Of a DNA stretch of 64,000 bases, positions 27,065 to 59,782 are shown piece by piece. Below the pieces are notes generated by a model that was not told where the DNA came from, ran no database searches, and worked only from the letters and a program-made list of their open reading frames with translations. Numbering within the stretch: the stretch's first letter is position 1; every line of letters starts with the position of its first letter. The translations under genes were made by a program, and so were the position numbers. The stretch covers positions 1,343,938 through 1,407,937 of the forward strand of contig JBEKFP010000001.1 of the NCBI GenBank assembly GCA_050013255.1. The letters are read 5' to 3'. The DNA comes from Candidatus Bathyarchaeia archaeon. GTDB lineage: Archaea; Thermoproteota; Bathyarchaeia; 40CM-2-53-6.

Positions 27065-27283
27065 GGCCCGGGATTAGATCCATGAGGTGACTAACGGGTA
27101 GAACTTTGCTATCATCAATCAACCGCCTCATTCTATATGCTACGGCGCAGACGAAGCTAGTTTGAAAGTCAGCCTCAATCAATTCCGGTAGCCTATCTAG
27201 CTGTAGTTCGCCCCCGAACCTTGGTACGGGATTCGCTAATCGAGAGTTAACCCTAAATTTCCGATTCCTCTGTGCTCGAATGA

Positions 27284-27380
27284 AGGTACCGGGGGAGCTG
27301 GGAAAATCCCGGCTGAGAGGACGGCTCACGTCGCCGTCGACCCCGTGAACCTGATCCGGGTAATGCCGGCGTAGGGAGTG
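27284..27380 (+). ncRNA. TPP riboswitch aptamer
   Basis: GGGGAGC...GGCTGAGAG...GACCCCGTGAACCTGATCCGGGTAATGCCGGCGTAGGGAG matches the TPP consensus; lies upstream of thiT. Confidence 0.95.
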
Positions 27381-27484
27381 TGCTAAGTGAACGCTAGTCG
27401 TGCAACTTTCCGCAATCCATCTAGAGCGTTCCATATCGCTGTCCTCGGTAACCTTCAACCAAAACGTGGAGGTGAAATTGGACA

Positions 27485-34557: not shown

Positions 34558-34673
34558 GGGCCGGTAGTTCAGCCTGGTATGCCAAGTGTTCGCTGGGCCA
34601 AAGAACGTCCGGTTTGCAAGTTCTTCACCAAGCTTCCGGAAGGTCGCGGGTCCGAATCCCGCCCGGTCCACCA
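34558..34673 (+). tRNA. tRNA-Ala(UGC) with two BHB introns (21/22: 34581-34602; 37/38: 34619-34634), CCA encoded
   Basis: Acceptor GGGCCGG/CCGGTCC with G3:U70; anticodon TGC 34615-34617; cloverleaf restored after intron removal. Confidence 0.92.
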
Positions 34674-40505: not shown

Positions 40506-42813
40506 ATACCGTGTAGGATACCCGCCTTTCCACACTTCTCTTCTTTGCCTCAGGCCAGAGGCTGAATGGTAGCAGACCGTAAGAAGATCTGCCAAGATGC
40601 GTGATCTTGTCTGACTCGCAGTTGCTGCATTTCGGAGTTATTCCTGGATCAGTGTGGTTGCAGACACTGCACGCTGAATAGTTTGATGTATAAACCAAAA
40701 ACTTGCAACCAGAATCAAATGCCTTCGCTGTAAGTCTCATGAGTGCGGGCGCCGTCGAATCAGGCGAGATGCAGACTAAGCTGAGGTGGCCGCCAGGCGT
40801 CGCGGATTGAAATCTCGACTCCAAATCAAGCCTGCTATCGATAGTCATTTTGGTTGTCAGCGGGATGGTCGGTAAGTCGGTGTAGTAGAATAGCCCTCGA
40901 GACCCGTCCGCTACGATCGCTGCCCTACCATATTGCTCAATGTCCAACTCCGCAAGCCTTCCCGCGGCTTCGTCTCCGGGCCTTTGTGAAGCGGAGATAC
41001 GCATTTCTGATTCCTCCGAAGCAGACTTTAGCAGGCTCGAAACTTCTTGCAATATCTTTAACCCGAAGTCTGCCGCCGCCCCATCTCGTTCCATCTTAAG
41101 TCCCGTGTGGGCTTCAACGGCTTCACTCAGGCCAATGAATGAGAGATTGTAGGACGAATTCTTCTCGTAGAAGTAAGGTGCGGTCCCACTCTCTCCAGCC
41201 AATAGGTGCAGAAGTGGTTGTTTCATGCGTTCGCTGATGAATTTTTTCTTGACTTTGAAACCTTCAACAGTGAGCGAGACCGTCTCCCTGAGTTGTGCTG
41301 AGAATTTTCCATCGTTCTTCTTCGCCTGGTAGGCGATCCTAGGTAGATTCAAGAAAATGGTGTCCATGCTACCTGTTCTGACGCAATCAGCGTCCCAGTG
41401 ATTAGTCCATTCATCGCCCAGCCTGAGCCCCGTGCCGGAGTAACTGCTCTTCTCTCCATCCTCACTAAGCTGAAACACGGGTATGCTTCGTTGGGCCGCT
41501 AGTTCGTGCGCTTTCTCAAGCATGGCTCTAGCCCGCTCATCACTCAACGCCTTACGCCCAACCCTTACTACCAGGTGGGGGAGAATGGGGGGCCTCGATT
41601 GCGACATCTTCTGAAACGCTTCGATTGTCGCACCCGCCAACAGGCGGCTTTCCTCACCATAGTCTGAATACTTGCTTGCCGCTTTACCCCCTGGCCCAAT
41701 CGCATCCTCCTGCGAAATGAATTCGGGGGTGATCAAGTCAATTGAGATTGAAATGCCAGCTTGGGGGCTACTCGAAGGGATATCCCTCCGCATTGAAGTG
41801 AGAAAATAATACAGACCATTTGAAATGTCCCCCGCCGTTCTTCCCCGGACGTATGGAGATAGGAAGGTGTTGAAGAACTCAACTGTCTGCTCCCCCGAAA
41901 CCTCACCCGCTCCAATTTCTAACACTTGACGGACTAGGGCAAGCGCCGCCTCAAATGAATCAGGTGGCAACATTCCGAATAGACTGTTTCTGAGGAAGTA
42001 GCGAATGTCGTGGATTATCTCATTTGGAGTGAGAATCCAATTTTCCAAATTTGCTATGTGAATTTCGCCTGATAGGTGGGCGTCCGCCAGTTTGTGGGGA
42101 AGGCAGTTAAGCAAAACATATTCCGATAGAACTGACCTTGCGGAGGAACGTTGCACATACTCCGCGCTAAGCTGTTTATCGCCCGCAGTTTTGATGAGTT
42201 GGGCAACATCGTAAACTGGCATACCGAGCCTTGTGAGCTTGTGGCGGTACTCTTCCAACTTCTTTTCAATTAAGATCGCATTAACGAACTCACGGATCAG
42301 GGGTGCGGTAAGATACGCCGTCTTCAACCTGATCAGCCTATCCTCAGCCTCAGCAGCTATCTCATCCGCAATCTCTTGTGGGACACCCGCCTCGACAACC
42401 AGTGATTTTGCGATCTTGTTCCTGTGAAATTCCTCTATGGCAAGCCTGGAAGATCTGACGTATAGTTTTCCGCGCTTTACATTCACATATTCATCCAAAT
42501 CTCTGGAGAAGGAAACAATCATTCGACCGAGTTCAGTGACCTCATATCGTTTCGTCTTCTTCTCAAGCGTGACTAGGCCGGTGTCCGTTAGGCTTCGGAG
42601 ATGGTAAACAAACTTCCCAGCGTCGCGCACAGGGTCGAGTTTGAGCTGGAACATTATCTCCGTGTACTGTAGAGAGCCCTTCGTTGAGAGAAGTCGCAAA
42701 ATCTGTAGTCGGACCGGGGCAGACGCGGCATTGAAGATGCCCGCACCAACTCTCTCCGATGAACGAAACAAACAATTACCGCCCAGAAGATGGCTCGCAA
42801 CCACTATAGGCAT
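40498..42813 (-). CDS. ArsR-type HTH + ATP-cone + class III ribonucleotide reductase (NrdD)-like protein, catalytic motifs degenerate
   Basis: R..IL..L...YHL..L...GLV HTH; ATP-cone LTAPLIREFVN..L; ADAHLSGEIHI, NLPRIA, IGLSEAV, GGH, CxxC...CxxC; C-terminal RSSYG in place of RxxGY. Confidence 0.85.
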   Translation of the reverse strand: MPIVVASHLLGGNCLFRSSERVGAGIFNAASAPVRLQILRLLSTKGSLQYTEIMFQLKLDPVRDAGKFVYHLRSLTDTGLVTLEKKTKRYEVTELGRMIVSFSRDLDEYVNVKRGKLYVRSSRLAIEEFHRNKIAKSLVVEAGVPQEIADEIAAEAEDRLIRLKTAYLTAPLIREFVNAILIEKKLEEYRHKLTRLGMPVYDVAQLIKTAGDKQLSAEYVQRSSARSVLSEYVLLNCLPHKLADAHLSGEIHIANLENWILTPNEIIHDIRYFLRNSLFGMLPPDSFEAALALVRQVLEIGAGEVSGEQTVEFFNTFLSPYVRGRTAGDISNGLYYFLTSMRRDIPSSSPQAGISISIDLITPEFISQEDAIGPGGKAASKYSDYGEESRLLAGATIEAFQKMSQSRPPILPHLVVRVGRKALSDERARAMLEKAHELAAQRSIPVFQLSEDGEKSSYSGTGLRLGDEWTNHWDADCVRTGSMDTIFLNLPRIAYQAKKNDGKFSAQLRETVSLTVEGFKVKKKFISERMKQPLLHLLAGESGTAPYFYEKNSSYNLSFIGLSEAVEAHTGLKMERDGAAADFGLKILQEVSSLLKSASEESEMRISASQRPGDEAAGRLAELDIEQYGRAAIVADGSRGLFYYTDLPTIPLTTKMTIDSRLDLESRFQSATPGGHLSLVCISPDSTAPALMRLTAKAFDSGCKFLVYTSNYSACSVCNHTDPGITPKCSNCESDKITHLGRSSYGLLPFSLWPEAKKRSVERRVSYTVSN

Positions 42814-42949
42814 GAATCGATGTTTAAAAAATTGTAGTTGCAGTCATTCCTTCGTCAAGGAACGCGAAATCTCCGCAGTTACCATCATTGAGAATCTTTA
42901 TCTTTACTCAGCATGCGAGGGGCTTCTATCCAGCACAGGTTGGTTGGAA

Positions 42950-43465
42950 ATGGATGAAATGCGAATGCGGGACGACGATTACAAAACGCTAGCGAAATTG
43001 GAAGAAGCGTTCGAAAGAAAGGATCTTTCATACTTCAAATCTTTTCTCCAAAACTCGAAGGGGCTCCCTCTCTTATTGCGTGTTCACTCAGTCTGTATGC
43101 TTGAGCACATTGGAAGCGAGGAAATGGTGGAGTCTTTGTGTGTGGTCCTCGCAGAAGATGCAAGCCCGCTTACAAGGCATGAGGCTGCGTTCACCCTGGG
43201 CCAGTTAGGTTACCGTTCTGCTGTACCCGCGTTGGTTGAGGCAATGCTTCATGACGAGAGCCCAATCGTCCGACACGAATCGGCTGTAGCACTGAGTTCC
43301 ATAGGCGACGATGGAGTGGTTCCAGATCTGAAGAAAGCGATTGAAGATGAAGATGAGGACGTGCGCAATTCGGCGTTAATCGCCTTCGAATACCTGGGTT
43401 ACATCCGCCGGAAAAGGGAAAGCGCTGGCGACAAGTTTGCGGTTAAACCGAAGATCAGGCTGTGA
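42950..43465 (+). CDS. HEAT-repeat (PBS lyase/DOHH-like) protein
   Basis: RHEAAFTLGQ and VRHESAVALSSIG repeats; ATG 42950 preferred over the ORF-track start. Confidence 0.85.
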   Translation: MDEMRMRDDDYKTLAKLEEAFERKDLSYFKSFLQNSKGLPLLLRVHSVCMLEHIGSEEMVESLCVVLAEDASPLTRHEAAFTLGQLGYRSAVPALVEAMLHDESPIVRHESAVALSSIGDDGVVPDLKKAIEDEDEDVRNSALIAFEYLGYIRRKRESAGDKFAVKPKIRL

Positions 43466-43501
43466 AGCATTTAAGCGAGTAGCCTGTCCCTACTTGGCCT
43501 A

Positions 43502-43677
43502 GGGGCGGTGGTCCAGGCCACGAGTCTACCCATCGTGGGGACAACTTGGTCTAAGATAGCGAAAACCAGTTCGCCTTGAAACCGGTCTCGGGACCAAAAA
43601 TACTGAACAGCGAGTACACCGGTGATCGAGGGTTCAAAATGGCCGGGAAGGTCATGATATTCCCTCCCGCCCCACCA
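43502..43677 (+). tRNA. tRNA-Pro(CGG) with four BHB introns (15/16: 43517-43544; 25/26: 43558-43580; 37/38: 43593-43616; 59/60: 43639-43660), CCA encoded
   Basis: Spliced 79-nt product GGGGCGG TG GTCC AGCTTGGTCTA AGAT A CCGGT CTCGGGC ACCGG TGATC GAGGG TTCAAAT CCCTC CCGCCCC ACCA; TATA-like TTTAAG at 43470. Confidence 0.92.
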
Positions 43678-43696
43678 ACGTTTTCACTTGGCGGGG

Positions 43697-44443
43697 TCAC
43701 ATCTCATATCCCGCATGCATGAATGTATGGGGTGCACCAAACGATGGGATGAAGACATCTTCATATTTCACATTCGAGAGGAACTGTCTACTCACCCTAT
43801 CTGCCAAGCTCCTCATTCGCGGGCTGTAAGCTAGCTCCACTGACGATCCGACGTACTGACTGCAACGACCTTTGCATCTCTCTTTGATATCCGCGTACAA
43901 TCGTTTCAGTGTGGCCGAATTGTTCCGGAAACCAAAAGGCCTCTCGGTAAGATCGATGATAGCAGCATCAAATCCATCGTCCGTGGAATGAAGATACTTG
44001 AAAGCATCACTGATCAAGATTCTAACCCTCGGGTCTCTGAACGCCCGATCTGCCCCCTTGATGTACTTCCTGCAAGATTCGACAAGCAATGCGTCAATCT
44101 CAACGACCTGGACACGCTTGATTGAGGGTGATTTAAGCAGTGTCAGTACCGTCTGCCCGCTACCGCCCCCTAGCACAACCACGCGTGCCACTCGATTTCT
44201 TCTAGCAGTACTGCAGAGGGCTTCGTTGAAAGTCCGCGAATCGTACGCCGTATGCTGGAGATTATTGTCGAGAAATAACATTCTACCATAAGCATCGTTA
44301 TCGATTATGTCTATTTTCTGATATCTCGACTGTTCCGAAAAACAGAGCCTCATAGCATGATAGGCCAAATGCAATCCAAGATAAGGTTCGTATACGATGT
44401 ATTCCGCTGCCGGGAAGCATACCTTACGGATACTTCTTGACAT
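43697..44443 (-). CDS. Spermidine synthase-like aminopropyltransferase
   Basis: S.YQKI.I......YGRMLFLD, VLGGGSG, VEID, DA..YL and IIDLTE motifs. Confidence 0.8.
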   Translation of the reverse strand: MSRSIRKVCFPAAEYIVYEPYLGLHLAYHAMRLCFSEQSRYQKIDIIDNDAYGRMLFLDNNLQHTAYDSRTFNEALCSTARRNRVARVVVLGGGSGQTVLTLLKSPSIKRVQVVEIDALLVESCRKYIKGADRAFRDPRVRILISDAFKYLHSTDDGFDAAIIDLTERPFGFRNNSATLKRLYADIKERCKGRCSQYVGSSVELAYSPRMRSLADRVSRQFLSNVKYEDVFIPSFGAPHTFMHAGYEM

Positions 44444-44504
44444 ACACTTCGACGGGCAGCCATAGGAACAATCTATATTAGAACTCCTCCGCGCATCCGA
44501 GCTA

Positions 44505-59474: not shown

Positions 59475-59782
59475 GGGTTGTGCGTGTTGGCCGTAACCCA
59501 CCTTCTGTTTTAGGCGACATTCATCTAATCGGGATACCCGCGCCTCAGGCGGCTTTCACGGGCGCCTATTATCCCTTTCACAGCGTGTGTAGGCATTTCA
59601 CCCTTACCGCCAGCCTCCTCAACGCAAGCGCATCATAGTCCACGGCTAGCGGAGGTATTTTTCTGCGCCTTAACCCAACCTCTCGGCTGGCACCTCACAG
59701 TGCCACGCGTCCGCCATGTGGGTGGAGTTTCCTCAGGCCCATTACACACAGGGCCCGGAGTCGCTCACCAACTCGCCAACCC
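59475..59782 (-). ncRNA. rnpB: Archaeal RNase P RNA
   Basis: Minus strand has GAGGAAACTCCACCC and AACAGAAGGTGGGTTA (the two P4 strands); terminal GGGTTG/CAACCC helix. Confidence 0.93.

Follow-up and report, generated by a model that had tools for sequence, protein, structure and literature searches.

Can a 176-nt interval that standard tRNA finders pass over encode one working tRNA in five pieces, and would four introns in a single archaeal tRNA gene be without precedent? These questions are raised by positions 43502-43677 (+) of the window, the whole 64,000-nt stretch of DNA analyzed here, in which a sequence-only reading had recognized a tRNA-Pro(CGG) gene with four introns. The unspliced gene is missed both by ARAGORN, which calls no tRNA in the whole window, and by the Rfam tRNA model at its gathering score. 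The host is an uncultured member of the Bathyarchaeia, and relatives of a neighboring protein are found in Bathyarchaeia/Bathyarchaeota MAGs from SPRUCE peat and Danish soils. Its genome comprises 2.46 Mb at 50.3% GC and is rated 100% complete. The window is archaeal, containing an archaeal RNase P RNA (175 bits; 59482-59776, minus strand). Other RNA features of the window include a TPP riboswitch (71 bits; 27281-27395, plus strand) and a tRNA-Ala(TGC) gene with two predicted introns (34558-34670, plus strand; 116 nt, 34558-34673, with CCA), the latter being the only tRNA that Rfam detects in the window.

Anatomy of the tRNA-Pro(CGG) Gene

The gene lies within a 231-nt gap between the end of a HEAT-repeat ORF at 43465 and the start of a spermidine-synthase-like ORF, on the minus strand, at 43697. 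It comprises five exons of 15, 13, 12, 22, and 17 nt and four inserts of 28, 23, 24, and 22 nt, all on the plus strand, with the inserts located at tRNA positions 15/16, 25/26, 37/38, and 59/60. Exon 1 (43502..43516; tRNA positions 1-15) supplies the 5' strand of the acceptor stem, U8, G9, the 5' strand of the D-stem (GTCC), A14, and G15. Exon 2 (43545..43557; positions 16-25) contains the D-loop with G18 and G19 and the 3' strand of the D-stem (AGAT), and exon 3 (43581..43592; positions 26-37) the 5' strand of the anticodon stem, C32, U33, the CGG anticodon, and G37. The 3' strand of the anticodon stem, the variable loop, the 5' strand of the T-stem, and the T-loop sequence TTCAAA are found in exon 4 (43617..43638; positions 38-59), and exon 5 (43661..43677; positions 60-76) completes the molecule with U60, the 3' strands of the T-stem and acceptor stem, A73, and an encoded CCA. 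Removal of the inserts results in a 79-nt product, CCA included, that ARAGORN calls as tRNA-Pro(cgg). The acceptor stem of this product is 7 bp long and its T-stem, which closes the loop TTCAAAT, 5 bp; the anticodon loop reads CUCGGGC, and A73 precedes the encoded CCA, a terminus also encoded by 17 of the 19 tRNA genes that Rfam detects in the same genome. The coordinates and arithmetic of the sequence-only reading, with 97 of 176 nt assigned to introns, are exact, and the locus is confirmed as a real tRNA-Pro gene, its five exons separated by four short introns.

BHB Motifs and Folding of the Precursor

Each of the four inserts is bounded by a BHB motif with 3-nt bulges and a predicted cut after the second bulge base, and one pairing rule holds at all junctions: the 4 nt ending two positions before the 5' cut face the 4 nt ending two positions before the 3' cut. 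Intron 1 (28 nt; 43517..43544), at 15/16, has a GTCC/GGAC central helix with four of four Watson-Crick pairs and a 6-bp inner stem (h'), CCACGA/TCGTGG; it is of the HBh' type, without an outer helix. Intron 2 (23 nt; 43558..43580), at 25/26, joins TAAG to CTTG through three Watson-Crick pairs and one U-G pair and has a 5-bp inner stem, GCGAA/TTCGC. Intron 3 (24 nt; 43593..43616) occupies the canonical 37/38 position, with a fully Watson-Crick CTCG/CGAG central helix (four of four pairs) and the anticodon stem as outer helix (h). Intron 4 (22 nt; 43639..43660), at 59/60 in the T-loop, has the T-stem as outer helix, a 5-bp inner stem, TGGCC/GGTCA, and a relaxed central helix, TTCA/TGAT, in which the outer pair is T-T. 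All four central helices are those read from the sequence at the outset, the last with three of its four positions paired. The features by which archaeal BHB introns are recognized are found together here: the central helix and bulge geometry, at least one flanking helix, a cloverleaf restored by intron removal, and host genes for EndA and a ligase.

The sequence-only reading also held that both strands of the D-stem are tied up in intron helices. This is true of positions 10-13, which pair within the motif of intron 1, and of positions 22-23, which pair within that of intron 2; positions 24-25 are bulge nucleotides. The arrangement supports the view that the D-arm could form only after removal of introns 1 and 2. 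An obligatory order of splicing was considered and rejected, as no motif needs the sequence of another intron or a junction created by an earlier splicing event. Because the four motifs have no nucleotides in common and can all fold before any splicing takes place, each intron could be removed before or after any of the others. The fold containing all four BHB motifs is not the MFE fold; nearest-neighbor energies give -55.9 kcal/mol for the former versus -67.2 kcal/mol for the latter, which retains the acceptor, T, and anticodon stems along with the intron hairpins.

Conservation within the Genus and Controls for Chance Motifs

Under permissive rules the tRNA-Pro(CGG) gene yields 124 BHB-like candidates in 173 nt. 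Relaxed BHB-like motifs are very common, and a motif alone is therefore little proof of an intron, a warning likewise given in a 2026 Asgard preprint (bioRxiv 10.64898/2026.10.13.758758). Conservation provides evidence of another kind. The four-insert, five-exon layout is present in all 19 sampled congeneric species carrying the gene. Exons 1, 3, and 5 are without variation in the 19 species, and the exons as a whole differ at two positions only, position 17 (T/A) being the sole variable site in exon 2 and position 47 the sole variable site in exon 4. The loops of the inserts vary in both sequence and length. Across the 19 orthologs 95.3% of the cells in the proposed precursor structure are paired, versus 43-51% when the partners are slid by 1-3 columns. 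Six pairs have changed on both sides, all of them in the inner stems of introns 1, 2, and 4, and the covariation score is matched by none of 500 shuffles.

Individual introns follow the same pattern. The central helix of intron 1 is 100% paired across the 19 species and its inner stem 97%, with one compensatory pair and a loop of varying sequence. Three pairs have changed on both sides in the inner stem of intron 2, the loop of which ranges from 3 to 11 nt. Intron 3 has a central helix that is 100% paired, enclosing an interior of 14 to 26 nt. Pairing reaches 99% in the inner stem of intron 4, where both partners have been replaced at two of the pairs, with UA in place of CG in 8 species. Pairing of the central helices amounts to 80-100% of cells per helix, and the outer pair of the central helix is absent from intron 4 in 13 of the 19 species and from intron 2 in 8.

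The same architecture is obtained with an independent parser, which requires a 7-bp acceptor stem, U8, and N-CCA, reads the cloverleaf in stages while skipping BHB-flanked inserts, and includes an ARAGORN check. This parser recovers exactly the same four introns at quality level 13. For the genome-wide census a rule maximizing the minimum motif quality, coupled with a reversed-genome control, replaced the permissive setting (BHB quality of at least 10), which was slow and ambiguous. The 1,824 acceptor-paired regions of the reversed genome yielded two false tRNAs at level 11 and none from level 12 upward.

Could the gene be real and its introns differently numbered or bounded, for example as five shorter inserts with the first region split, or as three introns and a retained expansion? 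With the relaxed rules (quality of at least 10) the parser did prefer a five-intron solution, at a similar score, and the abundance of candidates noted above illustrates how easily weak motifs arise. In other families, though, exons 1, 2, and 3 are uninterrupted (genomes G031, G039, G099, G100, and G037), with exon 1 joined to exon 2 without a gap, and in the related genus g2 exons 3, 4, and 5 form one uninterrupted string. Wherever an intron is absent from an outgroup the same exon sequences are contiguous; the exon edges are thus fixed independently of the motif search, within a bulge ambiguity of 1-2 nt. The five-intron parse of this gene is spurious, and it is the outgroup sequences alone that rule it out. 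By minimum motif quality the four-intron parse ranks first (level 13), and a different intron count or set of boundaries is accordingly very unlikely.

Gene Status and Expression

A BRE/TATA-like element, GAAGCATTTAAG, is found at 43464..43475 (+), 27-38 nt upstream of the 5' end of the tRNA. Either GAAGCATTTAAG or GGAAGCATTTTAG occurs at the same distance upstream in all 19 congeners, in flanks that otherwise diverge, and its position is that expected of an archaeal BRE/TATA, suggesting that the element is a promoter. A TTTT run at 43681..43684 (+), 4 nt after the CCA, is a weak candidate for an archaeal terminator, and its position varies among relatives. A second CGG gene was not found in the genome by homology search and the partial tRNA census. 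CCG accounts for 24.5% of proline codons in long ORFs. One soil metatranscriptome was matched (word share 0.05); over 42600-44500 it provided a single contig, at 43735-44167, and none over the tRNA. This contig falls on the spermidine synthase gene and is 96% identical, and hence derives from a relative. An exact-pattern scan of metagenome contigs with the fully spliced, genus-specific sequence gave no matches.

A decaying pseudogene, that is, a tRNA-Pro that has acquired insertions and whose CCG codons are now read through wobble by tRNA-Pro(UGG), might account for a D-stem with a C-A mismatch and a G-U pair, and a tRNA-Pro(UGG) gene with a single intron is indeed present in the genome. Decay is difficult to reconcile with exons that are near-invariant in 19 species, set against intron loops and flanks at about 80% identity, or with compensatory changes in the intron stems and a conserved promoter-like element. 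The same D-stem is found in compact orthologs, and no other CGG gene was recovered in the partial census of the genome. The pseudogene explanation therefore has a very small probability, and the tRNA-Pro(CGG) gene is almost certainly functional.

Splicing Enzymes and a Proposed Pathway

Two proteins of the EndA family (PF01974; 81.1 and 58.3 bits) and one match to RtcB (PF01139; 494 bits) are encoded in the genome. The first EndA paralog (190 aa; G000:C2:171513-172085) contains the Y...H...K motifs, its best matches are to alpha chains (3p1z_B, 2cv8_A, and 2zyz_B), and it aligns with the catalytic alpha subunits of A. pernix, S. tokodaii, and P. aerophilum at E = 1.5e-38 to 2.4e-28. A HMMER alignment extends through the Crenarchaea-specific loop (FGKPVGIPKPKPEQEF vs YGQPLDVEKPRG-ADF) and has a lysine at each of the positions equivalent to A. 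pernix K44 and R46. The second paralog (187 aa; G000:C1:301907-302470) gives a weak match only and has no His where the catalytic one would be, in keeping with a structural beta subunit. The two proteins constitute an alpha/beta EndA pair of the crenarchaeal type, predicted to assemble as a heterotetramer. The Crenarchaea-specific loop enables EndA to cut within the D-loop and at relaxed motifs (Hirata et al., 2011; PMC3241643), and an alpha subunit that carries it equips the host with an enzyme of the type that introns 1, 2, and 4 require. The RtcB gene (G000:C1:110968-113778, minus strand) has a 1,039-aa open frame in which the Pfam match is split into two parts (1-60 and 49-426) by about 1.4 kb, an arrangement that suggests an intein.

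Taken together, the locus is very probably a single functional tRNA-Pro(CGG) gene with four BHB introns that are cut by EndA and joined by RtcB. In the proposed pathway, transcription from the gene's own BRE/TATA promoter would produce a precursor of about 180 nt, with two introns in the D-arm (15/16 and 25/26), one in the anticodon loop (37/38), and one in the T-loop (59/60). The acceptor stem would enclose four independent BHB modules, each consisting of an intron and its adjoining exon sequence around a four-position central helix (3-4 positions paired), stabilized by the intron hairpins in the case of introns 1, 2, and 4, by the anticodon stem for intron 3, and by the T-stem for intron 4. 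A heterotetramer-type EndA, composed of the catalytic alpha subunit with its Crenarchaea-specific loop and the non-catalytic beta subunit, would then cleave every motif in its two bulges, at the predicted bonds, after which RtcB would join the exons. Any order of cutting would be possible, with the D-stem, and hence the L-shape, forming only once introns 1 and 2 had been removed. As the all-BHB fold lies above the MFE in energy, protein binding would be expected to pay for the bulges.

That some inserts are removed by self-splicing or tolerated as a retained expansion segment, without EndA or RtcB, might be argued from the imperfect central helices of introns 2 and 4 in many species, and is highly improbable: inserts of 22-28 nt are far too short for group I or group II ribozymes, all four have the geometry of a 3-nt bulge, a 4-position helix, and a 3-nt bulge together with flanking helices, the tertiary core could not survive an insert left in the D-stem or T-loop, and cleavage of relaxed and D-loop motifs has been demonstrated experimentally for the type of enzyme that the genome encodes (PMC3241643).

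Interrupted tRNA Genes across the Genome

Fragmentation of tRNA genes is widespread in this genome. Only 19 tRNA genes, most of them 90-190 nt long, are detected by the Rfam tRNA model in the whole genome. The BHB-aware census, a partial one in which 20 expected anticodons were not recovered, comprises 24 credible tRNA genes with about 2.0 introns per gene. Of these, 23 are interrupted, by a single intron in nine genes, by two in five, by three in six, and by four in three, and the remaining gene is intron-free. The genes for the 20 unrecovered anticodons are probably more fragmented. A tRNA-Pro(GGG) gene of 180 nt (G000:C3:122293-122472, plus strand) has four predicted introns, after mature nucleotides 15, 23, 33, and 48 (level 12). 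It has the 15/16 position in common with tRNA-Pro(CGG), and the similarity between the introns of the two genes is limited to the forced GGAC-AA end. A tRNA-Leu(CAG) gene of 195 nt (G000:C1:524981-525175, minus strand) is likewise predicted to contain four introns, separated in part by micro-exons of 6-8 nt (level 11). For tRNA-Trp(CCA) (G000:C2:632656-632884, plus strand; 229 nt) the parse has five introns with weak BHB motifs (quality 10) and uncertain inner boundaries; should this parse be correct, the genome itself would contain a gene with more than four introns.

No paralog of any tRNA-Pro(CGG) intron was found in the genome by blastn-short, which returned chance matches of at most 17 nt. 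Intron transposition was rejected as a source of the four introns, their matches elsewhere in the genome being those of chance.

History of the Introns among Relatives

The history of the gene was reconstructed by BHB-aware parsing of orthologous loci across genera and families, with the direction of change read by parsimony. In families f2 and f8 the gene has introns at 37/38 and 59/60, with exons 1-3 as one uninterrupted string, and in family f6 the intron at 37/38 only. Three genera of the host's own family (g2, g3, and g14) have the 15/16 intron in nearly all parsed loci, usually accompanied by a second D-arm intron at 21/22, 23/24, or 24/25; their parsed loci have no intron at 59/60 and no confident one at 37/38, the single call at the latter (genome G052) being a weak one at level 11. 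All four introns occur together in the genus of the present genome (g1), where the second D-arm intron is at 25/26. In a further genus of the family, g15, the BLAST matches are to tRNA-Val(CAC) rather than tRNA-Pro, and the exon-1 pattern, with one mismatch allowed, is absent from five genomes.

The distribution suggests a stepwise assembly in which the introns at 37/38 and 59/60 would be old and order-wide, that at 15/16 family-wide, and that at 25/26 genus-specific. By parsimony, the four-intron state would combine an old 3' pair with a younger D-arm pair, and the sister genera would have lost the old pair later. Among orthologs of family f1 (L038-L067) the second D-arm intron is found at 21/22, 23/24, 24/25, or 25/26 depending on genus or species, its sequences are unrelated, and it is absent in three species. 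This shifting site reflects either repeated gain at neighboring sites or intron sliding. At one locus of genus g3 (genome G063, L049:464-1554) a tRNA-Pro-like 5' fragment with contiguous exons 1 and 2 is followed by an intron-2-like piece, then by a 243-aa LAGLIDADG-type ORF (673-1404; PF14528, E = 3.9e-16), and then by an intact two-intron tRNA-Pro(CGG) gene, an arrangement that could represent a mobile element or a partial duplication at the tRNA gene.

The relatives also bear on a mismatch in the D-stem. C13, which pairs with intron 1 in the precursor, does face A22 in the tRNA-Pro(CGG) sequence, and this had been taken as a sign that the exon adapted to splicing. The D-stem is GTCC/AGAT in almost every parsed locus, including all five without a D-arm intron, which come from three other families (G037, G031, G039, G099, and G100). 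The presence of the same mismatch in relatives free of D-arm introns indicates that it is ancestral and older than those introns, contrary to the proposed adaptation. The GGAC of intron 1 would thus fit a pre-existing exon, rather than the exon fitting the intron.

Comparison with Other Intron-Rich Archaeal tRNA Genes

Three introns are the stated maximum for an archaeal tRNA gene in reviews and in the tRNAscan-SE 2.0 paper (PMC4033280; PMC8450103), and the sequence-only reading had taken four introns to exceed this maximum. The figure of three agrees with the reviews, and the literature nevertheless contains earlier four-intron genes, so the claim of novelty falls. Among Asgard archaea these include Arg-TCT, Ile2-CAT, and Leu-GAG of Freyarchaeia and Trp-CCA of Atabeyarchaeia-2 (Valentin-Alvarado et al., 2024, Nat Commun, Suppl. 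Data 4; PMC11291895), and in an October 2026 preprint the reported number of intervening sequences reaches five in a single gene and stands at 2.2 per gene for three Asgard families (bioRxiv 10.64898/2026.10.13.758758). The tRNA-Pro(CGG) gene is thus not a record in intron number. No publication on tRNA introns in Bathyarchaeia was found in the literature, and the preprint makes no mention of Bathyarchaeia or Thermoproteota (10.64898/2026.10.13.758758).

The Asgard four-intron genes resemble the present one in several respects. Both have at least four short introns of about 20-30 nt, spliced by proteins and in many cases located outside the canonical position, the D-arm included, both are missed or under-called by standard tRNA finders, and both occur in soil or wetland lineages. 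Paralogous copies of the introns are lacking here, and the preprint similarly finds almost no intron copying between Asgard tRNA genes. The phylum is a different one (Bathyarchaeia, in Thermoproteota), as are the tRNA and the intron positions, and the Asgard tRNA-Pro(CGG) is listed with one intron (PMC11291895). Compared with the Asgard genes, the architecture described here has the added backing of covariation across 19 species and of an outgroup series that dates each intron.

The multi-intron tRNA data for Thermoproteales reportedly come from Sugahara et al. in 2008 and Fujishima et al. in 2010, as summarized in reviews. In that order (Pyrobaculum, Thermofilum, and Caldivirga) the maximum is three introns per gene, with 1.54 per gene in P. 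calidifontis (PMC4033280; PMC8450103). Thermoproteales belong to the same phylum-level group as the present host and share with it BHB and relaxed-BHB introns at many positions and an (alpha-beta)2 EndA with the Crenarchaea-specific loop. Related introns recur in different tRNAs of Thermoproteales, which has been read as transposition, whereas no paralogous intron is found here, and the present host differs in being of a non-thermophilic peat and soil lineage with 50% GC. The closest experimental parallel for a D-arm intron is pre-tRNA-Thr(UGU) of A. pernix, the D-loop intron of which is cut by the alpha2-beta2 APE-EndA and requires the lysine of the Crenarchaea-specific loop (PMC3241643); the alpha subunit described here has a lysine at the K44 position. 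The A. pernix gene has a single intron, shown experimentally, in contrast to the four introns predicted for tRNA-Pro(CGG).

Implications for tRNA Gene Evolution in Bathyarchaeia

The tRNA-Pro(CGG) gene is a further case of a known type, from a lineage in which such genes seem to be undescribed. Heavy fragmentation of tRNA genes is not confined to the hyperthermophilic Thermoproteales and a few Asgard families, and extends to abundant Bathyarchaeia of peat and soil. Since ARAGORN and Rfam miss the gene, and Rfam recovers so few tRNAs from the entire genome, completeness checks based on tRNA counts and codon/tRNA analyses of such MAGs will be wrong. The ortholog series, with one to four introns between identical exons, constitutes a natural experiment by which gains and losses can be dated and the range of a broad-specificity EndA tested.

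With somewhat better than even confidence, the genus may be regarded as a third hot spot, besides Thermoproteales and the Asgard Freyr-, Jordi-, and Atabeyarchaeaceae, in which extreme fragmentation of tRNA genes has evolved independently, with tRNA-Pro(CGG) recording the process stepwise across one order. On this reading the introns at 37/38 and 59/60 would be old, that at 15/16 would have been gained at the family level, the second D-arm intron would have been gained or have slid repeatedly, and the 3' introns would have been lost together in the sister genera. Were this to be the case, mechanisms of intron gain and loss would become testable in these archaea, such as loss via recombination with cDNA of the spliced RNA.
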